From IMG/VR virus record IMGVR_UViG_3300037245_001077, positions 64,001-128,000 of that record: a DNA stretch of 64,000 nt. The stretch is one strand, 5' to 3'. A program made the translations under genes and the position numbers. Position 1 is the stretch's first letter. Every line of letters begins with the position of its first letter. This stretch comes from a virus. Below are positions 1,721-19,986 of this stretch, one piece after another. The notes beneath the pieces are model-generated. The model did not search any database. It had not been told where the DNA came from and saw only the letters and a program-made list of their open reading frames with translations.

Positions 1721-4700
1721 AAAACGTAGGAGGTAAGATGACGGTTGATGAACTAAGAGAAGCCCTCATGTACATGGACTCGGACGCAGAGGTGTTACTG
1801 ACTGATGGTGTTCATTTCCTGCGTAGATTTGCTATTGACCGAATGGAAACAGATAACGCTAATTCTGTGCATAAAGTCCCTCCTGTTGTCCTTGTGGCTA
1901 AAGAACCTCCTGAAGTCCCTTGGTGGGATGAAGCTCATCGGGAAGAGCATGGATATTAACACCTTCGATGATGTGGAGAAGTTCTTGGATAAGTTCCAAG
2001 ATCCCACACGTGAGGAAGAACTCATCCTAGAGACATTAGGTATCGATCCTACTGGAATTCAGATTTATTTCATGCGTAGACTACTAATGAAGACTTACCG
2101 TTATGGTAAAGAGCATGGATATGCTGGATCGTTGGATGTGATACGGAGGAGATGATGATGGGTTGGGATAGACTAGAAAACAGATATAGGGCAATAGTGT
2201 TGGCCGTAGTAGTTGTGCTCGGGGGAGCTAGTATACTTGTAGCTATCGCCATGACGTTCAACTGGCACCTACACAGGGCTTCTGTAGAGGAGTTCATGGC
2301 TAAGGAAGCGGGTGAGCACCAGAAGCTTATTGCAGAGCATGAGGTTGACTGTCCTGCTCTAAAGGGTGATACTCATTACGTTATCTTGACGGAAGAGGAG
2401 ATAGCTTTGAGGAATACTGCCAGGGTAAAGCGAGTAGAGTTTATTCGGCACGCTAGTGAGGCTTTGGGGGCTGAGTGGGAGGAACCTGACGTGAGGAGAT
2501 TTATCATGTATGGAGAACCGTTAGAATAATGACTACAATCATTATAACCCTGTTGGTAGTGTTCGTTCTTGGGGTTGCATTAATAAGTGTTGGTAAACAA
2601 TTACTTACGAGCCTTGTAACCGCGATCATACACATCAGGGAGGAACGAAAGTGAGCGATCTACCAGAGCTGTTACAGATAGTGTGGGAAGACTTTAAGGC
2701 ATCAGACGACTCGTATATGTGGCGTGTGGTGCTTTTTGGCGTTTTAGTAATTTCGGTCATAGGGATAGTGGGGTTAGCTATTTATGCCGCATAAAGATGG
2801 GAAATGGTATATCATGGGGCGCGAGGGTGTTGAGGTCTCAGGCACGCGAGGTAAGTCAAAGGATGAGACCACAAGTAAGCTCTGCGAGCAGATGGATATG
2901 CTGGATGGTATCCATCACGATTGGATCTTCTGGAGTAAGCGAGGGTATAAGCTCCGAAAGGACTAGTATGAAGCTGACACTCAACAGGCTATGGTTCTAC
3001 GCGGAGATTGCAGACGAGTGTAGATACCTGGCCGAAGACTTCAATAACGTCGTTAAACGGTACGACATAGACTTCAGGGTTAGTGATACTGAAGATGTCT
3101 TTGTGAACATGAAAGACAAGCTCATAGAGATCACTGGGAGCTATACGACGTATAACTCAGGTGGGTACGCCGACTACCAAGATTACACCATTCAGATCCC
3201 TTTTGGGTTTATTGAAGACCCAATAGAGTGGCAAGATGAATGGGAAGAGAAGCAGCATCAGGAGATGCTGGATAAGATCCAGAAAAAGGTTGAGGACAAG
3301 CGGAAGAAAGAAGATAGCCTTGAGGCCCACGACAGGGCCGAGTATGAGCGTTTGAGGGAGAAGTATGAAGATCTATGAGGGAGTACCTAAACATGTTGAT
3401 GAGTTGGTGGCTATGACGTGTGATAGGTGTGGTCGTAAAGCAAAGGTTAGTGATGTCGCGCTGATCAACAACTTTCAGACCATCACGGCTGTAGGGGCCT
3501 ACGGCTCTGAGCTGATTGGAGACCTAAGGAAGGTGGAAGTAGACTTATGTGAGAGCTGCTTTGACGCTACTCTTGGCCCTTACTGGAAAGTGGTTGAAGA
3601 GTGTGTGGACATGGGAGGGATATGAGAATTGCAGAACGTCAGATCTGGTATCTGTTGAATACCCTTAGAGATACGTTGACTATCGAGGGGGGGATATTTT
3701 CGGTCTCTCGGGAGTCACGGTTGGCTCTTTACAACGATATCATCAACCAACAGCCCAACGTAATCAGGGAATTTGTTGACAATACCGAGCTTTGTGTGGT
3801 ACAACAAGAGGGTGATGAAAAAGGAGAGTCCAATGCAGTTACAGAAGACGACCAATAAGGCTAAGATTGTGAACGTGAAGCCTTTGAAGAAGGGCACCAA
3901 GGTCCAGTGGTCCTCACAGGCCGGTGGTATGCGTACCACGAAGACCGGGACCATTGTATGCGTGTTGAAGAAGGACACGAACTACTACGGGGGTAATAGC
4001 TTTCCGCAGAACTTCATGATCCCGTTTTTCCGTGAGCGCCATAATGACACTATTGCAGAAGCACAAGTGCAATTTGCCGAGGGGAATGTGTGGAAGAATG
4101 AGTGGGCGATGCAATCCGTGTATCGCATGAAGTTTGACCTTCGTGGTGAGATGTATCGTAATACCGTGCATTATCTTGTAGCTGTAGAGCAAGGTCACGG
4201 ACAGAAGCCGCATTTGTATCACCCGGCGAATTACACGGCGCTCAAGGTTGTGAAGTAGTTGTTCCTTCTTTGATTCCTTCCTTTTCGAGGAACACTTCTT
4301 CGGCCCGCACGGGCGTTATGACCTCGTGCGGGTTTTTGTTAAGGAGACAAGGTGACCAATTACCACTATCGCAAGTATGAAGGCGCTCCTCATAGTGAGA
4401 AGAAGCGCCACGCCGCTCAACCCCCCTCCAAGCTGGGTCCGAGAAAGACTTCACATGATCGTCCTGTTCGACACATTAAGAGTCTCTCCTCTCTAGCCCC
4501 TCATGATAGTCGATGGTGGTGGTCGTCGCGTAAACGCTCCTCCCCCATCAATCCTCATGTAGGCTACCCGCTATCCACCTATCAGCTCTACAGCGCAGCA
4601 GAGCACGTTATACGTCGCCTGAAGGCTAATTTGATAGAGGACACTACTCTTAAGATCTATTGGGTAGAGGCGCAGGCTACTCATGCTCAACTCACTCCAG

Positions 4701-6290: not shown

Positions 6291-8683
6291 GGTACCTGGA
6301 GATGTGGAGTTGTGCCATGAGTGATTTCAAAGGAACCCTTGTTGTGACTATGCGATTCGACATACCTGTGCGTGCAGGTATGTACCAAACGGTGTTGAAG
6401 GAGAAGGGCGTAGTAACGCCTGACGATATCATTCGCATCGAAGAGCAGAATTACCTGGACAATGCGGACGACTACCTTGAGATCATGGGGGATCATGTGT
6501 CTGAAGTGTCATTTGATTTTCTGCCAGAGTCGAAAGGGGTAAAGCGTGAGTGACGATCTGTTGATTGACGATGATGAGTTGCTACCGGGTGAACTTGCTT
6601 TCACTTCTGCGGATCTCGAACGGCAAATAACAGACTTAACTGCGGTTTTGAAAAGGAAAGACGAGGAAGCCGAGCGTAGCTTGACTCAACTTCAACTCGA
6701 CGCTAACGCTGAGTATAAGCTGATAGTGAAAGAGCGACAGATGATTGAGGAGGAGCTAAATACTCTCAAAACCAACTTTGGGCGGTTAGAGGTAGAGGGC
6801 GAGAATATAAGTCTCGAAGGTAAACAGGTATTTGACCGTCTCGTGGAATTGGATAAAGAACGCATGATTGGGGTTCTGGCTATCCGCTTTCTCGCTCGAC
6901 GGATATCTGATGGTTTGATTTCTGTAGGTGCCTTACCCAATATCGACAAGAATATCTATGTGGCTCTTAGGGCGTGGGCAGAGAAAGCCACACCCCCCTT
7001 CTTTGAGGATGGCTGGCCCGAGGACAAGGCTCTTGGTGAGATACTAATGGAGATGTTTAAGGTTACTGGTACAACAGGTTCATATGCAAACATGTCTGGA
7101 AGGATCCAAGAGCTATTGACAGAGGATGAGAGCGAAGACTTCCAGAAGTACATGGACAAGGTACCGATTATTGACCCTCTTGGTATTACGAGTAAGACGG
7201 CTAGGCTGTACGCGAAGATTTCCCCTGAACTGGCAGGTGTCATACCTAAAGCACAAAGCTGGAAGCCTAGGGGGGCAGATGATATTTGAATGTGCAACTG
7301 ATGGATGTACAACTAAAACAGAGCGTAGAAGCCCTAGGCACAAGTACTGTGATGTATGTGCAACTAAAAGGAAGACCGACTATAATAAGGTTTGGTATGA
7401 AACTATTGGTGCTGAATGGAAGAGGATAAACTACTTAGAGAGCCGAGGGGGTATCCTTGTTACACCTAGAACACCGGAAGCTAAAGAGAAGACTAGACAA
7501 AGAGCTTTGAAAAGACACAGAGAGTACCAACAGCGGCCTGAGGTTAGAGAAAGACGTAAAAAATATGAGCAGCGGGCTAAAGTAGAGGAGCGTAATATTG
7601 GTTTGAGGGCAGAAATTATTGTTCTCCGCAGAGAACGCCGTCTTCAAGAGGAACGTGACGGTGGGAGACGTTTTTTTAGACGAAGAGCTAAAATTAGTGA
7701 GCCATATCTGCCAAAGCACCTTATATGGGGAAAGCCAGAAGAGGATGAAGTATCGTGAGCAAATCACAGGTTAGTAAGGAGCAGGTGGAGCACTTACATA
7801 AGAGTTGGCGCGGTAGGGGTGGGCGCAGTTCTCTGTATAACCTTGCTAAGAGACATGGAATAACCCTCAATGAAGCTTACGTGATTTTGAGTAGTCCCTT
7901 GCACGCTGCCACGAAGAGAGTGGAGATGGGGAAGAAGTTCGTGTCCTACAGGGAGAGATAATGCGAATCAAGGTCAATTGGTTTGTACGCTTCGTGGCTA
8001 AGGTGGCTAGAGTTGATCTTGATAGCTACGCCTGTGAGGACAAGAAGGACAAGAAGAGAGGCAGTGTAGACTTCAGTAAGGTAATGGCACAGCCGTTGCT
8101 ACCTCCCCGGCTTCAGTCAGACCTTAAGAGGATCATAGAGGAACAAGCAGAGCTAGCTGAGAAAATCACGGGGGTTAACCAACCACATACGGGAAGATCA
8201 CTAACGCAGGCTGGACAATGGAATGAAACAACCTTCACGGTTGGTACGGCTGAGGATCCCCAAGAGCTGTTAGAGAACATCTACTGGCCTGTGACTAAGG
8301 GTAATGGCCCTGGTGAGGTTACAGTAGACCCGTTGTCACAGGCGCGTGAGGATGCCCTTGAGGAGATCAATAGGCAGTACGCTATCCCTAAGGAGCTATG
8401 GGATAAGTTCAGGACTGAGGAGCAGATGGGGAAGTACTACCGGGAGCAGTTAGAGGAGTACATCCTTGCTAACGCACAGTCCGATGCCCCTCCACGTACT
8501 ACAGCGAAAGAGTATGCCGAGGTGGTGTATAGAGCCTTACAGAGAATGAGTGGTGTAGAGACTCCTCCCCGGCTTCAGTTCTCCCCCACACAGGACAAGC
8601 TGATAATCAGCCCTCCTCCGCCTGATCTAGAAGATGATTTGGGCGTAGATGGATGCGAGATACCAGAAGAGATGTTTGATTAG

Positions 8684-9017: not shown

Positions 9018-9091
9018 ACCCCTGTAGCTCAATGGTAGAGCGTGGTCCTTATAAGGCCGTGACCCGAGTTCAACTCTCGGCAGGGGTACCA
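9018..9091 (+). tRNA. tRNA-Ile(TAT)
   Basis: Cloverleaf ACCCCTG/CAGGGGT, anticodon loop CT-TAT-AA, encoded CCA. Confidence 0.9.
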
Positions 9092-9092
9092 C

Positions 9093-9122
9093 TTGACAAC
9101 TTCGATACTTAGGTGGTATCGT
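9093..9122 (+). promoter_or_regulatory. sigma70-type promoter for tmRNA
   Basis: TTGACA-18 nt-TATCGT with TG extension. Confidence 0.55.
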
Positions 9123-9144
9123 GTTCCTAGCTTATACAGCACGA

Positions 9145-9175
9145 GGGAGGAAGGACGCGATGCGACCAACCTCCC
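9145..9175 (+). repeat. Conserved hairpin motif, copy 1
   Basis: GGGAGG-[AAGGACGCGATGCGACCAA]-CCTCCC; loop nearly identical to the copy at 10897. Confidence 0.7.
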
Positions 9176-9195
9176 GCCATGGTCTTTCAAAATAT

Positions 9196-9536
9196 GGGGG
9201 CGCACTGGTTTTGACAGGGATGTTTGACGAGAGGGAGAAGCGTGTCGTGTTTGCTTTCGGCGTTAACGAAGGCTACTCGTTTAGTTGACGAATTTGAACA
9301 ACTACCCTTAGCGGCATAGTTCCGCTAACGTGGTCCTAGAAACTCCACCTATCTGGAGACCACGCTATTAGGTGGGCTGAGGTTTCCGTGCTCCATTTGC
9401 AGAGGAAGGCGTAAAGCTCATGTAGGTTAACTTCCTCATCTTAAAAGTAGGGCTTGCTTGAGCCTATCAAGCTACACACGTAGAAGGCTCTTAGATCCTT
9501 CCTTGGACGTGGGTTCGATTCCCACCGCCTCCACCA
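9196..9536 (+). ncRNA. ssrA: tmRNA, tag (A)DEFEQLPLAA*
   Basis: 5' GGGGGCG pairs with 3' CGCCTCC-ACCA (G3.U70), T-arm GGTTCGATTCC, tag ORF 9287-9319 ending LAA-stop. Confidence 0.95.
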
Positions 9537-9554
9537 ATTTTTTAAGGAGACAAG

Positions 9555-9872
9555 ATGAAGTTAATCACACAAATTCCCGAGGTAGGTATCCTTCCGAATG
9601 GTTTGTGGTGGAAGTATGTCCCCGTAAGGGATGATTTTTTTCATTTCGCTATAGGTTTTTGTTGGCGTTGGGGGAAACCCTACTACGATGAGTTTGATAT
9701 GAAGGAGAAGGACTTCTCCAGAGGGTTTCGCACGTCTTTACGATTGGTGAAAAAAGGTAGAGAGTATCGACTTATTCCTGAGCTTTTCTTTTGGGAAGAA
9801 GGCCAACAGTATGGGACGAAGCAGTGGTTTGATCGTAAGCTTTGGAGAACGACCGAAAAAATATCGGATTAG
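9555..9872 (+). CDS. Hypothetical protein
   Basis: SD AAGGAG, aromatic-rich 105 aa. Confidence 0.6.
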   Translation: MKLITQIPEVGILPNGLWWKYVPVRDDFFHFAIGFCWRWGKPYYDEFDMKEKDFSRGFRTSLRLVKKGREYRLIPELFFWEEGQQYGTKQWFDRKLWRTTEKISD

Positions 9873-9875
9873 GGG

Positions 9876-9904
9876 TTGACAAATCCTAAAACATATCCGA
9901 TACT
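9876..9904 (+). promoter_or_regulatory. sigma70-type promoter for the large ncRNA
   Basis: TTGACA-17 nt-GATACT, followed by boxA-like GATCTTTGACA. Confidence 0.65.
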
Positions 9905-9949
9905 AACTACCTTGCATGTAAATGCAACGATCTTTGACATTCAGGATAT

Positions 9950-10815
9950 GGCCACATGGGGTCATTAAGGAAACAGGGGAGTAATCCCCTGGAAGGGGTA
10001 ACGAGAGTGTTACGCTCGCCCACCTATCTTCGGGTAGGCCCATCCATGAGAATCGCGGGTAGCCCGAGCCACGGGTGGGTACGTGTGCCCTAACCTGAGG
10101 AGCAAGGTGATTGTACGGTGGTGCTAGATAAGGGACAAACCGGGTCTTCGGGCCACAAGGTAGCTCTTATCGATTCCTAGCAGGGATGCTAGGTAATCAT
10201 CGATCCAATTGTGAATCAGGCCACTCCTAAGCGATAGATACCTTAGTCCGAGGAAATGGCAAACCTAGGGCGGGGTAGCAGTACCATTGAGGTTTGGGCG
10301 GAATTCCCAAAAATCAAGAAGTACGGGTAAAGGGACAGCTAGTCTCGAATGCCAGGGCGCGTGTTGTATTTTGTGGCTCAAAAGGCTACGAAGCGATGGA
10401 CAGGGCACGAACCCAGTGACATTATCACCGTGAAATTCGCCTAATAGCAAGGCGTTTGGCCTTAGGACCAAAAGATGAGGGTGCAATTCCTTCATTTCAC
10501 TTCAAAACGATAAGGAAAGTCCCTGTCGGTCGCTAAGCGAAAGGGGCCTAAGCCTCTCCCCGCAAGGGAAGGGAGGCCACCGAAGCTCCCAAGGCTGAAA
10601 GTGGTCAATGTGGAAATGAAGACCTTGAGACGGCCATCTCAGGACGGACTGGAAACATCGAGTCGCGGAGCGATGACGAAGGAAATGCTACCTTCTTAAA
10701 AAAGCGGTCCTGGTCGAATACTGGAGAGATCCGGTGGATAAGTTGTTAACTGAAGGATGGAACCTTAGGGTACGGCAACAAAAGGTTGACCACAATAATG
10801 GGTAGTCTCACCATT
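9950..10815 (+). ncRNA. Large structured ncRNA, probably GOLLD family
   Basis: ~860 nt with no credible ORF, many GNRA/UUCG hairpins, own promoter, tRNA-array context and nested tRNA-like domain. Segments GTGTTGTATTTTGTGGCTCAAAAGG and terminal GTAGTCTCA resemble GOLLD as I recall it. Ends approximate. Confidence 0.7.
10430..10501 (+). ncRNA. tRNA-like domain nested in the large ncRNA
   Basis: Acceptor GTGAAAT/ATTTCAC, D-stem GCCT/AGGC, anticodon stem TTTGG/CCAAA with 8-nt loop CCTTAGGA, T-arm GAGGG-TGCAATT-CCTTC, no CCA. Confidence 0.75.
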
Positions 10816-10896
10816 TTCTTTTATTCTCTACCAGTGGTAGGGAATCTTCAAAGGCTCGGTGGTGCCCGCCTGGACGAAACCACCCTATTTTGTCCC

Positions 10897-10929
10897 TAGC
10901 GGGAAGAACGCGATGCGCCTAACCCGCTA
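10897..10929 (+). repeat. Conserved hairpin motif, copy 2
   Basis: TAGCGGG-[AAGAACGCGATGCGCCTAA]-CCCGCTA. Confidence 0.7.
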
Positions 10930-10946
10930 AATTTTGGTTGTAGTGT

Positions 10947-11021
10947 CGCGGAGTGTAGCAGCGGTAGCTAAGCTGGCTCATAACCAGATGGTCGGGGGTT
11001 CGAATCCCCCCTCCGCAACCA
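10947..11021 (+). tRNA. tRNA-Met(CAT), initiator-like
   Basis: Loop CT-CAT-AA, C1xA72 mismatch, CCA; only two of the three initiator G-C anticodon-stem pairs. Confidence 0.9.
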
Positions 11022-11070
11022 AGTTTAGGGGGTGTTCTTTCACCCCTTTTCTTTATTGTCTGGAGAGAGT

Positions 11071-11223
11071 ATGACCCGCAACGCTTTGATCCAGGCTATT
11101 ATCGAGATGGTTACATCTTCTTTACCCAAGAAGATAACGTTGACCAAGAAGATTGGCAAGGATTTGTGGGTAACGGATACGAAGAGAATGCTCGCCCTTA
11201 TGAAGAAGAAGAGGAAGAAGTAA
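11071..11223 (+). CDS. Basic protein, MTREE-motif family
   Basis: MTRNALIQAIIE start after GGAG; Lys-rich body. Confidence 0.65.
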   Translation: MTRNALIQAIIEMVTSSLPKKITLTKKIGKDLWVTDTKRMLALMKKKRKK

Positions 11224-11224
11224 C

Positions 11225-11590
11225 ATGACCCGCGAAGAGCTTACCGAAGCCATTGTTGAAGCAGTTATCGGTTCGCACGAGGCGGGTGTAGCTATCAATA
11301 CCATGTACAACCAGCATCCAAAGCTCTTTAAGAAAATAAACAAGTGGGAATCAGGGAAACGACGGCGTTTGCAGGTTATGAGAAAATTACGGTTGTCTAA
11401 GGATGACGATTTTGATATTAATGATAAGGCGGTAAGCCACTCTACACGCAAAGCGCATAAGTGGTTGTCTAAACGAAAGAATCCGTTAAATCGGACGTTT
11501 CAGGATCGGGTAAAGGCCGTAACTCGTAAGCCTTCAAAGCAAGTAGCGAAGGACGCGCATTACAATATGCGTTCTAGAATGACTTATTAG
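11225..11590 (+). CDS. Basic protein, MTREE-motif family
   Basis: MTREELTEAIVE then K/R-rich body. Confidence 0.75.
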   Translation: MTREELTEAIVEAVIGSHEAGVAINTMYNQHPKLFKKINKWESGKRRRLQVMRKLRLSKDDDFDINDKAVSHSTRKAHKWLSKRKNPLNRTFQDRVKAVTRKPSKQVAKDAHYNMRSRMTY

Positions 11591-11600
11591 AGGAAATAAC

Positions 11601-11642
11601 ATGTTCGTGACAACGATTAAAACCGAGGAGGAAAAGATCTAG
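11601..11642 (+). CDS. Attenuator leader peptide 1 MFVTTIKTEEEKI
   Basis: SD GAGGA; 10 of 12 non-start codons are Thr/Ile/Lys/Glu, the amino acids of the downstream tRNAs. Confidence 0.85.
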   Translation: MFVTTIKTEEEKI

Positions 11643-11647
11643 GATAG

Positions 11648-11698
11648 CCCTGGACATACCTTCGGTGTATCTCCAGGGACCGTAAGGTCTCTTTTTTT
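11648..11698 (+). terminator. Attenuator 1: antiterminator CCCTGGA/TCCAGGG overlapping terminator GGGACC-GTAA-GGTCTC-T7
   Basis: Both hairpins need GGG 11676-11678. Confidence 0.8.
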
Positions 11699-11708
11699 GT
11701 GTCTATGA

Positions 11709-11782
11709 GCCGGTGTAGCATAATGGCAATGCGCGTCTCTTGTAAAGACGGAGATCCAGTTCAACTCTGGCATCCGGCTCCA
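11709..11782 (+). tRNA. tRNA-Thr(TGT)
   Basis: CGTCT-CT-TGT-AA-AGACG, CCA; slightly irregular acceptor/T junction. Confidence 0.85.
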
Positions 11783-11787
11783 ATATT

Positions 11788-11862
11788 CACCCTGTAGAAC
11801 AATGGTCAGTTTACCGGGCTTTCAACCCGATGATCGGGGTTCAACTCCCCGCAGGGTGACCA
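11788..11862 (+). tRNA. tRNA-Glu(TTC)
   Basis: Loop CT-TTC-AA, CACCCTG/CAGGGTG, CCA. Confidence 0.9.
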
Positions 11863-11866
11863 ACTT

Positions 11867-11942
11867 GGCGGTGTCTGCTAACGGTTAGGCAACATGGTTC
11901 TCACCCATGAAATGGCGGGTTCGATTCCCCCCACCGTCACCA
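11867..11942 (+). tRNA. tRNA-Glu(CTC)
   Basis: CATGG-TT-CTC-AC-CCATG, CCA. Confidence 0.9.
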
Positions 11943-11954
11943 TAGGAGATCAAC

Positions 11955-12107
11955 ATGAACGGCGACCGAAACGACAAGATGTCCGAACTCATGCGAGCAA
12001 TTCGCTGGGGGTGGGACTGTATGTACCCTGTCCGTATCAAGGGTAGTGAGAAACGTCGTTTGCGTCGAAAATACCGTCACGATGCTAAACGTGAGATAGC
12101 CCTGTAG
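11955..12107 (+). CDS. 50-aa basic ORF inside tRNA operon 1
   Basis: SD AGGAG; MNGDRNDKMSELMRAIRWGWDC...; stop codon lies inside the 5' end of tRNA-Ile. Confidence 0.5.
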   Translation: MNGDRNDKMSELMRAIRWGWDCMYPVRIKGSEKRRLRRKYRHDAKREIAL

Positions 12108-12172
12108 CTCAGTGGTAGAGCAGAGGGTCGATAACCCTCGTGTCCGTGGTTCGAATCCACGTGGGGCTACCA
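12098..12172 (+). tRNA. tRNA-Ile(GAT)
   Basis: GAGGG-TC-GAT-AA-CCCTC, CCA. Confidence 0.92.
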
Positions 12173-12179
12173 TTTACAC

Positions 12180-12255
12180 ACCCCCATGACGCAACTGGCA
12201 GCGTAGCTGGCTCTTAACCAGTATGTTGAAGGTTCGACTCCTTCTGGGGGTACCA
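12180..12255 (+). tRNA. tRNA-Lys(CTT)
   Basis: Loop CT-CTT-AA, CCA. Confidence 0.92.
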
Positions 12256-12258
12256 TGT

Positions 12259-12333
12259 GGGATCGTGGCGCAATGGAAGCGCAACAGGCTTTTAACCTGA
12301 ATGTTGAGAGTTCGAGTCTCTCCGGTCCCACCA
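12259..12333 (+). tRNA. tRNA-Lys(TTT)
   Basis: Loop CT-TTT-AA, CCA. Confidence 0.92.
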
Positions 12334-12365
12334 CCTTCTTCCTTCTTTATTTCTTGGGAGATGCT

Positions 12366-12599
12366 ATGACCCGAGAAGAACTTATTGAAGCCATTGTTGA
12401 AGTGATGCAGCGAAGTAAACATCCTCTAACGGGTGGTCATTTCAGTTTTCCTCCTCCTATGAAAACAAGAGCAGGGCAGTGGACAAGACGGAAGCGTTTG
12501 AGGGTTGTTTCTGGTGCTATGACAGGTAAAGACCCTAGCATAACGAAATCTATGGCTTTTGCTTCTGAAATAGCTCGAAGAAAACGAGCAAACAAATAG
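12366..12599 (+). CDS. Basic protein, MTREE-motif family
   Basis: MTREELIEAIVE; start re-assigned to 12366 (SD GGGAG). Confidence 0.75.
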   Translation: MTREELIEAIVEVMQRSKHPLTGGHFSFPPPMKTRAGQWTRRKRLRVVSGAMTGKDPSITKSMAFASEIARRKRANK

Positions 12600-12610
12600 A
12601 GGATTAAAAT

Positions 12611-12844
12611 ATGACCCGTGAAGAGATTATTGAAGCCATTATCCTTACTGAGTTCGAGCCTTTGACTATGATTGCTGCTGGTGCGGCTACTGGTTACGCG
12701 GCTAGAAAGTTGAGAAACCGTTATAGCGTTAAAGGAGCCACAGGTGCGGCTAAGAGAAGTTCGGCTATCTCGAAGGCATATGCGAAGAAGGCTGAGCGGC
12801 ATACCGCAAGGGCAAAGTTCCTTACTGCTAGAAAGAACGCATAA
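12611..12844 (+). CDS. Basic protein, MTREE-motif family
   Basis: MTREEIIEAIILTE, Ala/Gly segment, basic tail. Confidence 0.75.
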   Translation: MTREEIIEAIILTEFEPLTMIAAGAATGYAARKLRNRYSVKGATGAAKRSSAISKAYAKKAERHTARAKFLTARKNA

Positions 12845-13944
12845 TGACCCGAGATAAGATTATTGAAGATATTGTTGAAGGCTACGTCAAAGATGTGCTC
12901 ACTTACGATTTGAGTAAGCATCATCCTAGACCCCATGAGCGCTTCCGCTTCAACAACGCAGCCCGTAAAGCCAAAGAGAAGGCACGGGAAGTGTTTAGGA
13001 ACAAAGCCAAGAGCGCACATGATACTCAACCTATTGACGTTTCCAAGTTTGTATCCAAATCTACAGCTCGTAGGGCACCGGGGATCAAAGTCCCCAAAAG
13101 CTATCGCCCTAAACTTAAGATGAGTTCAGCTAGGCGAAAGGGTCCAACCGTTCGCCAACAGCAGGGCAGAAAAGCAGTGTTGGGTGCAGCGGCAGCTATT
13201 GGTGCGGGTATGGTGGCTCATAAGGCGTACAAGTACCATAAGGCCAAAAAGAAAAGAGAGATGCGTGAAGGCTTGATTGAGGCCCTTTCTACTCATAAGG
13301 TCTACAAGGCTAGGATGTTTTCAAAGAAGCCACAATCTTATGCTAAAACAATGACTTATTGGCAAACTCCAGAACAGAAGAGTTTAAAAGCTGTTAAGAA
13401 AAAGATTCCCGTGGTTTCTTTAGAGTTAAGGAGTAAAAAGGATAAGTCTACCCATCAGGTGTCGCTTGCTCCAGATCCTCGTAAGAGGCTTTGGGGGAAA
13501 TTGGCAAAGATGCAGGGGTTTGACCCTAAATCAAAGAAAGCAACGCTTAAACGACGGGCGTTTTATCGTTTGCGTAAGAACAAGTACAAGGTTGTTGAGG
13601 GTGACCTAGGGGACTTCGCTGTAGCCCCAACCGCAGCCGTAGACGCTTCCCCGATCCATAAAGAGCAGAGGGATCGGTATTGGATGATCAAGAACCGTAA
13701 GAAGATCAAGAACATGATAGTGAAAGAGGTTTTTGACGACACCTATGGTTCGAGCGTGCTTGACCGAGCAGCACGGGTGGAAAAATCTACAAACTTTATT
13801 GCTAAGGCGAAAAAGCTTAAAAGCCTTGTTGGTAAGGCGAGAAAGCTTACTAAGGATTATGAGCTTGGTATGTACCACGGTGCGGGCAAAATGTCTAAGA
13901 TGAATATCTCTTTGGGTAACAAAAAATTTGGGAAGATAGGGTAG
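12844..13944 (+). CDS. Long basic protein, MTREE-motif family
   Basis: MTRDKIIEDIVE plus internal MREGLIEAL. Confidence 0.75.
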   Translation: MTRDKIIEDIVEGYVKDVLTYDLSKHHPRPHERFRFNNAARKAKEKAREVFRNKAKSAHDTQPIDVSKFVSKSTARRAPGIKVPKSYRPKLKMSSARRKGPTVRQQQGRKAVLGAAAAIGAGMVAHKAYKYHKAKKKREMREGLIEALSTHKVYKARMFSKKPQSYAKTMTYWQTPEQKSLKAVKKKIPVVSLELRSKKDKSTHQVSLAPDPRKRLWGKLAKMQGFDPKSKKATLKRRAFYRLRKNKYKVVEGDLGDFAVAPTAAVDASPIHKEQRDRYWMIKNRKKIKNMIVKEVFDDTYGSSVLDRAARVEKSTNFIAKAKKLKSLVGKARKLTKDYELGMYHGAGKMSKMNISLGNKKFGKIG

Positions 13945-13952
13945 GGGTTAAC

Positions 13953-14225
13953 ATGACACGCGAAGAAGTGATTGAAGCCATTGTATACGAGATGACGCAA
14001 GAGAAAAAAGATAAGTGGAAGTCTCGTGCCAAGAAAACTGCAATCGGGGCTGGTATAATTGGAGTAGGTGTTCTTGCTACGAAAGCTCCTAAAGCTAAGC
14101 GTTATCATGCTTTAGGTAAAAAGGTGTCTTCTACGGTGGATAGTAGCGCTTACAGACAAGCTTTGGTTTCTAAGAACAAATATGGATTGCATGTTGACAA
14201 ATACTATGGTTCTTCTTCTTTTTAA
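13953..14225 (+). CDS. Basic protein, MTREE-motif family
   Basis: MTREEVIEAIVYE. Confidence 0.75.
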   Translation: MTREEVIEAIVYEMTQEKKDKWKSRAKKTAIGAGIIGVGVLATKAPKAKRYHALGKKVSSTVDSSAYRQALVSKNKYGLHVDKYYGSSSF

Positions 14226-14228
14226 GGC

Positions 14229-14257
14229 TTGACAACGGTAACAAAAGATGCCATACT
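14229..14257 (+). promoter_or_regulatory. sigma70-type promoter of tRNA operon 2
   Basis: TTGACA-17 nt-CATACT with TG extension. Confidence 0.75.
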
Positions 14258-14266
14258 AAATCAGTA

Positions 14267-14326
14267 ATGAAGAATTTTCTATATACCCTCGTTGATTGTG
14301 TAGCCCACTTTGATAGTTGGCTTTAG
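14267..14326 (+). CDS. Attenuator leader peptide 2 MKNFLYTLVDCVAHFDSWL
   Basis: Contains all 8 amino acids (D,L,A,H,C,Y,F,V) of the downstream tRNAs; ATG 9 nt after the -10 box. Confidence 0.85.
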   Translation: MKNFLYTLVDCVAHFDSWL

Positions 14327-14377
14327 GGGGGTTTTTGTCTTTTCGTCTTTGACACCCCCTGCACAAGGGGGTTTTTT
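14325..14377 (+). terminator. Attenuator 2: antiterminator AGGGGG..TGTC/GACACCCCCT versus terminator ACCCCCT-GCACA-AGGGGGT-T5
   Basis: The C-run 14355-14359 can pair with either G-run. Confidence 0.8.
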
Positions 14378-14384
14378 AGTATTC

Positions 14385-14461
14385 GGGGGTGTAGTCTAGT
14401 AGAGTAAGGCCCTGGATTGTCAGTCCAGTGATCGCCGGTTCGAGTCCGGTCACTCCCGCCA
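14385..14461 (+). tRNA. tRNA-Asp(GTC)
   Basis: CTGGA-TT-GTC-AG-TCCAG, G73, CCA. Confidence 0.92.
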
Positions 14462-14481
14462 AGTTCTTTGAAAATTAGTGT

Positions 14482-14566
14482 GCTGAGGTGGCGAAGTTGG
14501 TAGACGCGCTGGTCTTAGGAACCAGTGTCTTCGGGCGTGTGGGTTCGAATCCCTCCCTCAGCACCA
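14482..14566 (+). tRNA. tRNA-Leu(TAG)
   Basis: CTGGT-CT-TAG-GA-ACCAG, long variable arm, CCA. Confidence 0.92.
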
Positions 14567-14577
14567 AAATATCGTGT

Positions 14578-14653
14578 GGGCTGTCATGTTCCAAGGGGGC
14601 GAGGAGCACTTGCAATGCACCTGTGGAGGGTTCGATTCCCTTGCGGTCCACCA
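14578..14653 (+). tRNA. tRNA-Ala(TGC)
   Basis: Loop CT-TGC-AA, G3.U70, atypical D arm, CCA. Confidence 0.85.
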
Positions 14654-14657
14654 AGTT

Positions 14658-14731
14658 GTGAGGGTAGTGTAATGGCAGCACGAGAGTTTGTGGCACTCTC
14701 AGAGCGGATTCAAATTCCGTCCCTCACCCCA
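14658..14731 (+). tRNA. tRNA-His(GTG)
   Basis: AGAGT-TT-GTG-GC-ACTCT, C73, CCA; G-1 not encoded. Confidence 0.88.
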
Positions 14732-14811
14732 GTTTCGGTTTTGGGGGTCCGACACAGTGTTACAAGCTACCTCAGAGGTAGTTCAAGGGCACTCTACAAA
14801 ATCCCCATTTG

Positions 14812-14885
14812 AGGGTGGTGGCCGAGAGGCTAGGCAGGGGACTGCAAATCCTTTTACGCGGGTTCAAATCCCGCCCACCTTTCCA
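14812..14885 (+). tRNA. tRNA-Cys(GCA)
   Basis: Loop CT-GCA-AA, U73, CCA. Confidence 0.92.
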
Positions 14886-14886
14886 T

Positions 14887-14972
14887 GCCAGTATAGACCT
14901 CTATGGAGGGGGGACGGGTTGTAGCCCCGTTGTTGCAAGGCCCGCAAGGTTCGATTCCTTGTACTGGCACCA
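14887..14972 (+). tRNA. tRNA-Tyr(GTA)
   Basis: ACGGG-TT-GTA-GC-CCCGT, long variable arm, CCA. Confidence 0.88.
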
Positions 14973-14975
14973 TTT

Positions 14976-15051
14976 GCCTCTGTAGCTCAGGTAGTAGAGC
15001 GCGAGACTGAAGATCTCGGCGTCGGGGGTGCAAGTCCTCCTGGGGGCACCA
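14976..15051 (+). tRNA. tRNA-Phe(GAA)
   Basis: CGAGA-CT-GAA-GA-TCTCG, CCA. Confidence 0.9.
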
Positions 15052-15054
15052 TTT

Positions 15055-15130
15055 AGGCAGGTAGCTCAGTTGGTAGAGTTGCTGGTTTACACCCAGTCTG
15101 TCATCGGTTCGAATCCGGTCCTGCCTACCA
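15055..15130 (+). tRNA. tRNA-Val(TAC)
   Basis: Loop TT-TAC-AC, CCA. Confidence 0.92.
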
Positions 15131-15192
15131 TTCACTTTATTGTTTGGGGTATGTATGTTTCGTGAAGATTATTTTATAAAACGGGATAAAAT

Positions 15193-16068
15193 ATGACGGA
15201 TAGAAATTTAGATTATGACTATGCTGCAAAGCAACGAGATATTACTCGTGAGCAGTATGCTAAAGGAACATATATTTATGCTGGTTATAGTCCTGCAACA
15301 CCTTTAGTGTGGAATGTTGAGGATCAGCCGATTGGCTCAGGTGCTCCGGCAAACGTGTTTGACGCCTGGGGCGAGGACTTGGAGGTCCGGGCGATCCCTG
15401 TGGATGGGAAAGAGCCGCTGACGCCGTTCACCAAGGAGCTTCATGCAAAAACAGGGAACCCTGGATATCTCTATGGGCTGTACTTCACATTATTGCTCGA
15501 TGGTTTTGATATTGATTTGAATAATGGTAAATTCCGGGTTGAAATTGTGGCTCGGCATGTTGTCCCAGATCCAGAATTTCAGCCCGGTCAATACTTACAG
15601 CTTGGTGAGGACGACTATTACCCAGAATGGGATACGTGGCGCATGTTCAAAGCCGGGTTTCTTTCTGAAGAGTCCGGCGAAAGTGATGTTCAATCTTGGC
15701 ATTGGGAGTTTGGTGGTGAACTATATAATTCGTTCTATGACTACAAGGTAAACTGGGAGTTCGGAACACCAATTGTCGGATACACTATCCACCAGATCGA
15801 GGTGGATTTCCAAGCTGGCGTGTTCGAGCAACGCATCGTTGGTCATTGGGCAGGAGATCAAGGAGAGCAATCATCTTGGTGGGTTAAGGCTCCTCGCGCC
15901 GCTGAATTTCCGGCTGGAGAACAGTCAGCACAGACGCTCATATTATGGCTTCAAGATAAAAACAGCGGAGAGGCGATGGTTACTCAGCTTTGGCTTGGCC
16001 CAATTACTGACCCATTCCCAAATGGCGCGGTTTTGACATCGAATATCGGGTTTGGAAATAGTTCTTGA
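15193..16068 (+). CDS. Hypothetical aromatic-rich protein (possible virion/lectin-like)
   Basis: 291-aa ORF between tRNA operons, W/Y/F-rich. Confidence 0.6.
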   Translation: MTDRNLDYDYAAKQRDITREQYAKGTYIYAGYSPATPLVWNVEDQPIGSGAPANVFDAWGEDLEVRAIPVDGKEPLTPFTKELHAKTGNPGYLYGLYFTLLLDGFDIDLNNGKFRVEIVARHVVPDPEFQPGQYLQLGEDDYYPEWDTWRMFKAGFLSEESGESDVQSWHWEFGGELYNSFYDYKVNWEFGTPIVGYTIHQIEVDFQAGVFEQRIVGHWAGDQGEQSSWWVKAPRAAEFPAGEQSAQTLILWLQDKNSGEAMVTQLWLGPITDPFPNGAVLTSNIGFGNSS

Positions 16069-16093
16069 CAAGCCCTTTATTGGGTGTTAGAGT
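16065..16093 (+). promoter_or_regulatory. sigma70-type promoter of tRNA operon 3
   Basis: TTGACA-17 nt-TAGAGT with TG extension. Confidence 0.75.
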
Positions 16094-16102
16094 GATTAAG
16101 TT

Positions 16103-16171
16103 ATGAAGAGATTATCCTCAAGGTTGTGGCAACAGAGCGGCTCGAATCCGAGTCGCCCAGGAGAGCTGTAA
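16103..16171 (+). CDS. Attenuator leader peptide 3 MKRLSSRLWQQSGSNPSRPGEL
   Basis: Has a codon readable by each of the 12 downstream tRNAs; all 21 non-start sense codons differ. Confidence 0.9.
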   Translation: MKRLSSRLWQQSGSNPSRPGEL

Positions 16172-16236
16172 CTAAGGGGTAAAGATGCCAATTCGCCCGT
16201 TCCGTTCTTACCCCCTAGTACAGTAGGGGGTTTTTT
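16172..16236 (+). terminator. Attenuator 3: antiterminator CTAAGGGGTAAAGA/TCTTACCCCCTAG versus terminator ACCCCCTA-GTACAG-TAGGGGGT-T5
   Basis: Shared C-run 16211-16215. Confidence 0.85.
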
Positions 16237-16246
16237 ATTGATCTAA

Positions 16247-16258
16247 GTTCTTTGAAAA
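16247..16258 (+). promoter_or_regulatory. boxA-like antitermination site
   Basis: GTTCTTTGAAAA; identical copy at 14463-14474. Confidence 0.6.
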
Positions 16259-16271
16259 CAAAAAGTTATGT

Positions 16272-16348
16272 CCGAGAATGGCGCAGTTTGGCAGCGCACT
16301 TGGTTTGGGACCAAGGTGTCGAAGGTTCAAATCCTTCTTCTCGGACCA
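16272..16348 (+). tRNA. tRNA-Pro(TGG)
   Basis: CTTGG-TT-TGG-GA-CCAAG, CCA. Confidence 0.92.
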
Positions 16349-16349
16349 T

Positions 16350-16434
16350 GGAAGGTACCGTCTATGGAGACAAGCGGTTTTGAACACCGTAGGCACGTGT
16401 AAGCGCGGGGGTTCGATTCCTCTACCTTCCTCCA
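16350..16434 (+). tRNA. tRNA-Ser(TGA)
   Basis: Loop TT-TGA-AC, long variable arm, CCA. Confidence 0.88.
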
Positions 16435-16444
16435 AGTTGTGTGT

Positions 16445-16519
16445 TCGGGCATGGTGTTAGTGGTAGCATACGAGGTTTCCACCCTCTGGGGCCGGGTTCG
16501 AGTCCTGGTGCCCGAACCA
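16445..16519 (+). tRNA. tRNA-Gly(TCC)
   Basis: Loop TT-TCC-AC, CCA. Confidence 0.88.
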
Positions 16520-16529
16520 AAATTTATGT

Positions 16530-16603
16530 AGGGGTATAGTGAAATGGTATCACGGCAGATTCCAGACCTGCTTTTCCGGGTTCAAATCCTGGTACCTCTG
16601 CCA
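16530..16603 (+). tRNA. tRNA-Trp(CCA)
   Basis: Loop TT-CCA-GA, G73, CCA. Confidence 0.88.
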
Positions 16604-16609
16604 AAGATT

Positions 16610-16698
16610 GGAAGGGTGGCTGAGTGGTAACAGCGCCGGGTTGCTAACCCGAGGCCGCGCTTCGGCGTGCGAGGGTTCGATCCCCTCTCCTTCCTCCA
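16610..16698 (+). tRNA. tRNA-Ser(GCT)
   Basis: Loop TT-GCT-AA, long variable arm, CCA. Confidence 0.92.
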
Positions 16699-16704
16699 AG
16701 TGTT

Positions 16705-16808
16705 GAACGGTGTGGCGTGGCAGCGTCAGGTTTTCCGTTAAGGAGATCATCCCTCCACTGCCTAATCGGAGAATGATGGGAGCTGGGTGGGGAATCCAGC
16801 CACCGTTC
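16705..16808 (+). ncRNA. Putative ~105-nt structured RNA of unknown class
   Basis: Closed by GAACGGTG/CACCGTTC, occupies a slot between two tRNAs. Confidence 0.5.
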
Positions 16809-16818
16809 ACTTTTTTGA

Positions 16819-16895
16819 GGCCCTGTAGCTCAGCGAACAGAGCATATGGCTACGAACCATAGTTGTCGGGGGTTTGAATCCCTCCAGGGCTTCCA
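16819..16895 (+). tRNA. tRNA-Arg(ACG)
   Basis: TATGG-CT-ACG-AA-CCATA, CCA. Confidence 0.92.
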
Positions 16896-16898
16896 TTT

Positions 16899-16974
16899 GC
16901 ACCCGTGGTCTAATGGCAAAGGCACTGCGTTTCTACCGCAGCAGATGTGGGTTCGACTCCTACCGGGTGTTCCA
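16899..16974 (+). tRNA. tRNA-Arg(TCT)
   Basis: CTGCG-TT-TCT-AC-CGCAG, CCA. Confidence 0.92.
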
Positions 16975-16984
16975 AAACTTATTC

Positions 16985-17063
16985 GGCACGGTAGCTTAGC
17001 ATGGCCTAAAGCAGTAGTTTGTTAAACTAATGATCGTAGGTTCAAATCCTACCTGTGCCGCCA
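16985..17063 (+). tRNA. tRNA-Asn(GTT)
   Basis: Loop TT-GTT-AA, G73, CCA. Confidence 0.9.
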
Positions 17064-17069
17064 AATTTT

Positions 17070-17156
17070 GCTGGAGTGGCTGGAATTGGTATACGCAGGG
17101 GACTTAAAATCCCTGGCCGAAAGGTCGTGTGGGTTCGACTCCCACCTCCAGCACCA
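17070..17156 (+). tRNA. tRNA-Leu(TAA)
   Basis: Loop CT-TAA-AA, long variable arm, CCA. Confidence 0.92.
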
Positions 17157-17161
17157 GCTAT

Positions 17162-17238
17162 GCCGCTCTGGGCCAATTGGTAGAGTCGGGGGTCTCAAAA
17201 GCCCTTTGTTCCGAGTTCGAATCTCGGGGGCGGCACCA
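17162..17238 (+). tRNA. tRNA-Leu(CAA), short variable loop
   Basis: Loop CT-CAA-AA, A73, CCA, only a 5-nt variable region. Confidence 0.85.
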
Positions 17239-17241
17239 TTT

Positions 17242-17317
17242 AGCGGAGTAGCTCAATTGGTAGAGCACTGGACTCTGAATTCAGTTGTTGTAGGTTCAAA
17301 CCCTACCTCCGCTGCCA
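17242..17317 (+). tRNA. tRNA-Gln(CTG)
   Basis: Loop CT-CTG-AA, CCA. Confidence 0.92.
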
Positions 17318-17392
17318 TTTTGATTGCAGAAACTGACACTTTTTGGTAGGTTACGCGAATGAAAAGCACTGTTTGTGGTCATAATGACTACT

Positions 17393-17468
17393 AGGGGAGT
17401 AGCTCAATTGGTGGAGCAACAGGCTTTGAACCTGTTGGATGTGAGTTCGAACCTCACCTCCCCTTCCA
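17393..17468 (+). tRNA. tRNA-Gln(TTG)
   Basis: ACAGG-CT-TTG-AA-CCTGT, CCA. Confidence 0.92.
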
Positions 17469-17810: not shown

Positions 17811-18194
17811 ATGAAGTTGTATGTTTTGTTTGAGCAACCGGATGAAACGTATCCGGGGCAGTATGCGCCGTTAGCCGTTACGGTACTCGATGAGTACACT
17901 GTGGATAATTCCGGAAGATCGCTTCACGAGGCTCAGGAGGCAGAACTTGCTCGTCTTTCTATGAAGGAAGGGTTTGATCCTACAGATGCTAAGTGGGCCT
18001 GGGTTGAGGTGGATCTTGGTGTGACTGAACAGTTGATCCGAGATGCTATTCTTCAGCCTGCCCTCGCTGTCCAAGGTGTAGTAGCAGTTCCGGCTGCTCC
18101 TCAAGGGCAGAAACACCCTTCTTATCAGGCCATTACCGTGACTAGAGGAAGGCCAGGAGCAGGAAGAATTGTTGACGATGAAATTGTGGAGTAA
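17811..18194 (+). CDS. Hypothetical protein
   Basis: Strong SD TAAGGAGG. Confidence 0.7.
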   Translation: MKLYVLFEQPDETYPGQYAPLAVTVLDEYTVDNSGRSLHEAQEAELARLSMKEGFDPTDAKWAWVEVDLGVTEQLIRDAILQPALAVQGVVAVPAAPQGQKHPSYQAITVTRGRPGAGRIVDDEIVE

Positions 18195-19462: not shown

Positions 19463-19783
19463 ATGAGTAGTAAATATGCTGGTGCGATGTTGAAAGCAAC
19501 CAAAGTTGGTGGTAGGCGTTACACCACGGTAAAATCTTTGAATAAGGCTAGAGCACTTGTTCAGGCTGCTGAGAAAGCTTCTCATGGTAAGGTTATCCAA
19601 GCCAGTGAGATTTACCGTGATGACCTTATTGAAGTTCTTGTGGACACACTTATGGAGAAGGATAAGTGTGATGACAAGAAGGACGACAAGGACGACAAGA
19701 AAGACAAGAAAGACAAGAAAGAGAATCCCTTCGCTAAGTTCAAGAAAAAGAAGAAGAAAGATGACGAAGAGGATGACGATTAA
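19463..19783 (+). CDS. Highly charged protein with an internal RDDLIEVLVD motif
   Basis: SD AGGAG; DDKKD low-complexity tail. Confidence 0.7.
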   Translation: MSSKYAGAMLKATKVGGRRYTTVKSLNKARALVQAAEKASHGKVIQASEIYRDDLIEVLVDTLMEKDKCDDKKDDKDDKKDKKDKKENPFAKFKKKKKKDDEEDDD

Positions 19784-19986
19784 TGAATCGTGAAGAGTTA
19801 ATCGAGCTGTTGGTGGAAGAAGCTCTCAAAGACTTCCCTGGTAATGACAAAGAATCAAAGTACAAACGTATGAAGCTTCATATCATGGCAAGTGCCCGTA
19901 AAGGTCGTAAGAGTGGAAAAGACTTTAAGGCTTACGTGTACGGAGCAATGAGAAATCGTGGGTGGAAGCCCACAAGAGAGAGGTAA
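19783..19986 (+). CDS. Basic protein, MTREE-motif family
   Basis: MNREELIELLVEE. Confidence 0.7.
   Translation: MNREELIELLVEEALKDFPGNDKESKYKRMKLHIMASARKGRKSGKDFKAYVYGAMRNRGWKPTRER

Follow-up and report, generated by a model that had tools for sequence, protein, structure and literature searches.

A short open reading frame matched to the 12 tRNAs of a phage operon: a probable ribosome-mediated transcription attenuator

A codon-matched leader upstream of a 12-tRNA operon

An operon of 12 tRNA genes in an IMG/VR virus record is preceded by a short open reading frame (ORF), named leader C herein, that probably belongs to a ribosome-mediated transcription attenuator, one that would gate the operon and report the supply of its own tRNAs. 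All of the sequence-level defining features of a leader-peptide attenuator are present at the locus (Table 1). Its anatomy, its codon statistics, and a pattern of conservation that includes compensated changes were observed directly and are described below.

Positions are those of the window, the whole 64,000-nucleotide stretch of DNA that was analysed (bases 64001–128000 of the virus record, which has a total length of 176,533 bp and a G+C content of 47.8%). ARAGORN and Rfam identified 27 tRNA genes, a tmRNA, and a GOLLD RNA within 9018–17468. All 20 amino acids are covered once an Ala-like tRNA missed by the programs is added to the set. The tRNA genes form three main blocks, A (11709–12333), B (14385–15130), and C (16272–17468).

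Table 1. Features of leader C, its operon, and the two sister attenuators (window positions)
Feature	Position	Strand	Description	Evidence or note
Upstream promoter-like site	16033–16062	+	TTGACA, 18 nt, AATAGT	Consensus scan, 10/12 matches
Promoter, sigma-70-type	16065–16093	+	TTGACA, 17 nt, extended −10 (TG n TAGAGT)	Consensus scan, 10/12 matches plus TG
Leader C ORF	16103–16171	+	22 codons and stop (ATG, 21 sense codons, TAA)	
Sensor run	16109–16162	+	18 different codons (codons 3–20)	All in boxes of operon C tRNAs
Hairpin inside ORF	16137–16156	+	8-bp stem, 4-nt loop	In every fold; invariant in the alignment of relatives
Antiterminator 5' arm	16166–16187	+		Pairs with 16202–16223 in nascent-transcript fold
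G-run core	16176–16182	+	GGGGTAA	Begins 13 nt past the last sensor codon
Intrinsic terminator	16210–16237	+	8-bp stem, 6-nt loop, T-run	Terminator scan; −14.2 kcal/mol
Conserved AU-rich motif	16245–16259	+	Contains TTCTTTGAAAA	Between terminator and first tRNA gene in 7/7 versions
Operon C	16272–17468	+	12 tRNAs: Pro-TGG, Ser-TGA, Gly-TCC, Trp-CCA, Ser-GCT, Arg-ACG, Arg-TCT, Asn-GTT, Leu-TAA, Leu-CAA, Gln-CTG, Gln-TTG	Called by both ARAGORN and Rfam
Sister attenuator A (putative)	11601–11698	+	Before Thr, Glu, Glu, Ile, Lys, and Lys tRNAs	
Sister attenuator B (putative)	14229–14377	+	Before Asp, Leu-TAG, Ala-like, His, Cys, Tyr, Phe, and Val tRNAs	

An initial annotation, made from the DNA letters alone, had placed an attenuator at 16065–16258, a span that runs from the −35 hexamer to the conserved motif past the terminator. 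It had listed 21 sense codons for the leader ORF, none of them repeated, and re-reading 16103–16171 returned exactly the same list. Under genome codon usage, the chance that 21 random codons are all different is 0.011. The annotation had also claimed that codons 3–20 form an unbroken run in boxes read by the downstream tRNAs, and this too was borne out. Matches to the 12 tRNAs were found for 18 of the 21 codons (binomial tail 4.3e-6, with a background frequency of matching codons of 0.36). The probability of the run itself, which the annotation had proposed to compute, is 1.3e-8 for 18 codons at a given position under genome codon usage. No longer run of these codons occurs anywhere in the 176.5-kb genome when all six frames are read; the next longest have 16 and 15 codons, and leader C is the only one of 6678 short ORFs in the genome to reach 18.

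Under strict wobble rules the number of matching codons is 16 of 21, with TCC and GGC requiring four-box reading by a U34 tRNA. Each of the 12 operon C tRNAs has a strictly readable codon in the leader, and for 10 of the 12 the pairing is exactly Watson-Crick. When 18 codons are drawn from these boxes, full coverage of the 12 tRNAs is expected with P = 0.006, and full coverage in a draw without repeats with P = 2.5e-5.

Promoter, terminator, and alternative pairing

The leader ORF is short, starts just 3' of a sigma-70-type promoter, and lies 5' of the tRNA genes that it would regulate. The −35, spacer motif, and −10 of this promoter were found again in related contigs (L085, L074, L081, L082, and L076/L078). 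The start codon follows the −10 by 10–11 nt in five versions of the leader, and by 10 nt in leader C and in the leader of operon B. An ATG at this distance would give a message with a 5' leader of about 3 nt, which is nearly leaderless. The role of a promoter-like site further upstream is uncertain because the site is not conserved in relatives.

In all seven versions of the leader, an intrinsic terminator is located between the ORF and the first tRNA gene, and nascent-transcript folds show that its 5' arm can be used in an alternative pairing. When the folded transcript of the window ends before the terminator 3' arm, the G-run pairs with the C-run of the terminator 5' arm. Full-length equilibrium folds yielded the terminator hairpin in nearly every modelled state, and therefore any switch must be kinetic, as in the trp leader. 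Folding alone is insufficient to demonstrate such a switch, and among the folds only those of nascent transcripts are informative. With the RNA masked to 13 nt past the A site of a ribosome on the last sensor codon, the antiterminator forms in 7/7 versions; with the RNA masked at the end of the ORF, it is unable to form. The hairpin inside the ORF is a candidate polymerase pause hairpin. The AU-rich motif past the terminator may serve as a signal for processing or belong to the termination region. The TTCTTTGAAAA motif also occurs at 14462–14475, between tRNA-Asp and tRNA-Leu in operon B.

Conservation of leader C in related contigs

The initial annotation had made its proposal depend on conservation of the ORF in related phages. 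The ORF is present in six other versions on related metagenomic phage contigs, giving seven versions including the window (L076 and L078 are one version). Contig L069 was reached via a homologue of a neighbouring gene (17811–18191), without using the leader sequence, and is an unbiased test because it was found independently of that sequence. It carries blocks B and C, with the same 12 operon C tRNAs in identical order. Identity between the window and L069 is 94.4% (51/54) in the sensor run, 76.4% in the 12 tRNA genes, 60% in the antiterminator-terminator region, and 38% in the promoter region. A 20-nt pattern from the conserved core matched L074, L076, L078, L081, L082, and L085 in metagenome contigs, together with six unrelated GC-rich sequences; since the pattern was taken from the leader, identity within the 20-mer is by construction in at least four of the six other versions. 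The L076 contig ends before most of its operon. Contigs L067, L068, and L070–L073 have the downstream gene and end short of the attenuator.

Changes among the versions are compensated within the reading frame. The frame is kept despite indels of +6 nt (L085), +3 nt (L069), and −3 nt (L076), all of which are in frame. In L069, codon 12 is AAC in place of AGC, but AGC is present again as codon 3; the positions of AGA and AGG are swapped in the same leader. TCA, TTG, and TGG are kept in rotated order in L074, L081, and L082, where AGG is replaced by CCT, a codon that is also in the set. These in-frame indels and regained codons point to translation of the leader and to selection on its codon content. 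One mismatch was found in L082, in which the Arg tRNA has a TCG anticodon and the leader retains CGC; L081 and L082 lack Gln-CTG yet keep CAG, which is there readable by wobble only.

Codon 2 and the codons past the last sensor codon vary freely among relatives and include codons outside the set. The initial annotation had taken the second and the last two codons to be uninformative for stalling, and exactly these positions vary. The geometry fits that claim as well, in that the last sensor codon, identical in all seven versions, always lies 12–15 nt before the G-run, about one ribosome footprint. The stop codon is placed before the G-run in the window, on it in L076, just after it in L081 and L085, and about 16 nt past it in L069, L074, and L082. 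The 25–40 nt between the G-run and the terminator 5' arm are unrelated among versions, yet the pairing is kept in 7/7. A Shine-Dalgarno-like sequence precedes the start codon in the versions with a long 5' leader (L069 and L076/L078).

Sister leaders and operon specificity

Blocks A and B are each preceded by a leader of their own. The leader A ORF (11601–11642) has 10 of 12 codons matching its own operon (tail 1.9e-5), which is the longest such run in the genome. Contig L065, reached via a homologue of gene 7961–8680, has block A and the GOLLD RNA. Its leader A ORF is 95% identical to that of the window and its six tRNAs are 70% identical, and the leader changes affect two non-sensor codons only, both synonymously. 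In the leader B ORF (14267–14326), 12–13 of 18 codons match the operon that follows (tail about 1e-3), and a homologue is located at L069:2538–2597.

Leaders A, B, and C match one another's operons only 0–3 times, and each is thus specific to its own operon. The joint probability of the three sets of codon matches is of order 1e-13. The Leu codons of leader B, whose operon encodes Leu-TAG, are exclusively CTN, and those in the sensor run of leader C, whose operon encodes Leu-TAA and Leu-CAA, are exclusively TTR. The Ile codon ATA is absent from leader A, and operon A is without its tRNA, Ile-TAT, which lies elsewhere. This split of Leu and Ile isoacceptors among leaders has a P value of about 0.02. 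Because Leu codons are divided by isoacceptor and leader A avoids ATA, sensing appears to take place at the level of tRNA species.

The gene for tRNA-Val is the last of operon B in the window (15055–15130); it forms a separate unit just before attenuator C in L069 (4124–4198), L078, L082, and L085. In leader B of L069, two core Val codons are replaced by Ala codons and one Val codon is left near the start, which hints at covariation between leader and operon.

Controls and database searches

In a scan for upstream ORFs, the three leaders of the window had corrected P values of 8e-7, 0.011, and 9e-5; run blind on the relatives, the same scan recovered their leaders. Applied to the tRNA clusters of T5 and five other GOLLD-carrying phages, it found nothing similar (corrected P = 0.1–1). 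In XacN1 (L087), a cultured Xanthomonas phage, a 13-codon ORF (30429–30470) precedes genes for Lys-CTT, Lys-TTT, and Tyr-GTA tRNAs, and 7 of its 12 codons are Lys or Tyr codons (three Lys and four Tyr; corrected P = 8e-6). Hairpins occur downstream of this ORF, and a clear T-run or canonical terminator was not seen there. With this ORF, the same principle may be represented in a cultured phage.

A BLAST search with the locus as query returned generic tRNA similarity only among 50,697 phage records. Searches with the 291-aa, 105-aa, 127-aa, and 704-aa neighbour proteins and with a repeated small-protein family found no tRNA-carrying relative. Relatives identified by the portal protein in IMG/VR (L001–L007) have no tRNAs; reckoning from portal position, a 139-kb portal relative would be without the part of the genome expected to hold them. 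The leader pattern had no matches in the viral_contigs and genome_contigs databases. No Rfam family of any kind, T-box riboswitches included, matched 16065–16258 at E values up to 0.1. Full-text literature searches yielded no account of tRNA genes controlled by a leader peptide. A supposed Phe-rich leader upstream of Escherichia coli tRNA-Phe genes was ruled out, at least for pheV, the locus of which has a plain promoter and no leader.

Proposed mechanism and alternative explanations

In the mechanism that we propose, transcription would begin at the sigma-70-type promoter and a ribosome would initiate at the ATG, which lies only a few bases into the message. It would then have to decode 18 codons, all different, among which every one of the 12 tRNAs is represented at least once. 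After fast transit, the ribosome at the end of the ORF would cover the G-run, the terminator would form, and the tRNA genes would stay off. Slow decoding of any sensor codon would make the ribosome lag and leave the G-run free to pair with the emerging terminator 5' arm, and polymerase would read into the tRNA genes. The hairpin inside the ORF may hold polymerase until the ribosome arrives. With the switch in this presumed direction, the outcome would be negative feedback, with synthesis of the tRNA set during shortage and shut-off once the supply is sufficient. Shortage in vivo might be caused by cleavage or depletion of host tRNAs, by host tRNAs that are rare, or by heavy phage demand.

Several points weigh against the model. 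Single codons stall ribosomes more weakly than the tandem codons of classical leaders, and five of the seven versions would need translation from a 5' leader of about 3 nt. TCC and GGC are beyond strict reading by the U34 tRNAs of operon C. A ribosome also cannot tell a missing tRNA from a missing amino acid. The initial annotation had suggested that sampling one codon of each kind senses severe loss of a tRNA species and not mild amino-acid starvation; the isoacceptor split of Leu and Ile codons among the leaders is the one observation that points this way.

The same device could instead respond to amino-acid starvation or to general translation speed, with leader C sampling eight amino acids and adjusting tRNA synthesis to the charging state of the cell. 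Stalled ribosomes report a lack of charged tRNA whatever its cause, as in trp and his attenuation, and sensing of several amino acids by one leader is already known from thr and ilv. We consider starvation an unlikely signal here, given that Leu codons are divided by isoacceptor between leaders B and C and that ATA is missing from leader A; starvation feedback would also serve no purpose, because extra tRNA does not relieve amino-acid starvation. Another explanation is that the conserved 54-nt block acts at the RNA or DNA level, for example as a hairpin for pausing or processing, a substrate resembling a minihelix, or a site bound by a protein, and that the ORF in it is incidental. Such an element would leave unexplained the codon match to the operon tRNAs, including that of two unrelated leaders to their own operons, as well as the in-frame indels and the lost codons regained elsewhere, and no Rfam family is found at the locus. 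The block is more conserved than selection on the codon set alone demands, and its invariant 8-bp hairpin, with CCA after it, is similar to the acceptor/T-arm minihelix of a tRNA, but we regard this explanation as quite improbable.

Translation of the leader could also control Rho access, RNase cleavage, or maturation of the precursor, with intrinsic termination playing no part. Thermodynamic dominance of the terminator in equilibrium folds would agree with this, as would the conserved AU-rich motif past the terminator. Set against it are the hairpin and T-run, a G-run able to sequester the 5' arm, and a geometry that stays fixed while the intervening sequence turns over completely. Fixed geometry with turnover between the arms is the sequence signature of a terminator/antiterminator switch, and we give control by these other routes little credence. 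A further explanation, that leader C is a small protein-coding gene or a chance ORF beside an ordinary terminator with a coincidental codon match, draws on nothing further than the many short ORFs in any genome. It is barely credible in view of the joint probability for the three leaders and of the position of the C and A runs, each the longest of its kind in the genome and each directly 5' of its own operon. A ribosome-mediated attenuator that reports on the tRNAs of its own operon is the reading we prefer.

Comparison with known attenuators and significance

Classical leader attenuators of enterobacteria include trpL, hisL, leuL, and pheL, and some are multivalent: thrL senses Thr and Ile, and ilvL and ivbL sense Leu, Val, and Ile. 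Leader C shares with these leaders a promoter, a short ORF with regulatory codons, an intrinsic terminator, and an antiterminator that uses the terminator 5' arm. As in those leaders, the ORF ends at a point where a finishing ribosome would block the antiterminator, and a hairpin within the leader could pause polymerase. Enterobacterial leaders control biosynthetic enzymes and use tandem codon runs, whereas leader C precedes a tRNA operon and uses each codon once, covering up to 12 tRNA species (8 amino acids). It also differs from them in its phage setting and in having almost no 5' untranslated leader in most versions. The pheM leader of pheST, which encodes phenylalanyl-tRNA synthetase, is similar in that a gene of the translation apparatus is attenuated, so that the supply of charged tRNA is under feedback; pheM senses a single amino acid through repeated Phe codons and controls a synthetase, whereas leader C would control tRNA genes. 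T-box riboswitches likewise couple tRNA status to terminator read-through via an antiterminator, but bind one uncharged tRNA directly by a specifier codon, without a ribosome or an ORF. Relative to these known attenuators, the putative tRNA-gene target, the breadth of 12 species, the one-of-each codons, the phage setting, and the near-leaderless start would be new.

To our knowledge, next to nothing has been reported on the control of phage tRNA genes by the phage itself, and these genes are usually regarded as constitutive cargo for the adjustment of codon usage. Vibriophages reportedly induce tRNA degradation, with phage tRNA sets offsetting the loss of host tRNAs. Phage tRNAs are also said to evade anticodon nucleases, and the tRNA-Lys of T5 is reported to counter PARIS defence. 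Sets that offset tRNA loss offer a physiological reason for sensing a shortage of particular tRNA species. As far as we know, these studies describe the tRNAs and not a codon-matched control of their transcription.

If leader C functions as proposed, it would be the first case of leader-peptide attenuation regulating tRNA genes. With one codon listed for every tRNA of the operon, such a leader would show that an attenuator can have tRNA supply itself as its regulated variable. A textbook mechanism would thereby gain a new class of targets, and the leader would provide a compact natural sensor of individual tRNA species. A phage with such a leader would also respond automatically to specific tRNA loss, a point of relevance to current work on tRNA-cleaving defence systems. 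The element is about 170 nt long and self-contained, and could serve as a reporter of tRNA status. A broader reading, about as likely as not, is that large phages have a demand-driven tRNA homeostat, in which a checklist leader before each operon polls all of the encoded tRNA species and switches on exactly the set that the host lacks or has destroyed. Such a homeostat would act as an inbuilt sensor of defences that target tRNAs and of tRNA turnover induced by the phage. The candidate Lys/Tyr leader in XacN1 suggests that the design may be widespread.

Other features of the tRNA region

Non-canonical tRNAs missed by ARAGORN or Rfam were found at several places. These are the Ala-TGC-like tRNA of operon B (14577–14655), a Tyr-GTA-like tRNA in L069 (missed tRNAs lie at 2934–3013 and 3170–3268 of this contig), and a Ser-TGA-like tRNA in L074/L081/L082, located between Pro and Gly in L081. 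All have proper anticodon loops and acceptor ends. An interpretation of the Ala-like element of operon B as degenerate and covarying with Ala codons was dropped, as the element has a homologue in L069 for which ARAGORN reports a tRNA-Ala. XacN1 (L087) has, at 30287–30390, an unannotated tRNA-like gene that carries an insertion.

Interspersed among the tRNA operons (11071–14225 and 19783–19986) are seven small basic paralogues that have a MTREELIEAIVE-like N-terminal motif in common. They matched no protein family, and a pattern search for relatives returned none. The window also encodes a tmRNA (9196–9536), and the identical tag peptide is encoded in L065 (4304–4627). The GOLLD RNA (10354–10814, and 9876–9904; Rfam 161 bits) contains a tRNA-like insert at 10430–10501, has its own promoter 5' and tRNA-Met 3', and is 92% identical to that of L065, with only 70–76% identity in nearby tRNAs. 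Similar hairpins with a common loop motif occur directly 5' of the tmRNA (9144–9178) and of tRNA-Met (10899–10929).

Insertions were observed in and around operon C. About 400 nt with a Cys-rich ORF separate attenuator C from tRNA-Pro in L085, possibly a homing-endonuclease-like insertion. In the window, a 120-nt insert within the operon (16699–16818) is strongly folded (−43.5 kcal/mol) and has a T-run; it is absent from L069 and L081. A different insert of 112 nt with two T-loop-like hairpins is found at another position (between Trp and Ser-GCT) in L074 and L082. Such inserts may represent structured RNAs that are mobile among tRNA operons. In the ORF at 16700–16741, 6 of 12 codons fit the seven tRNAs downstream (P = 0.009).
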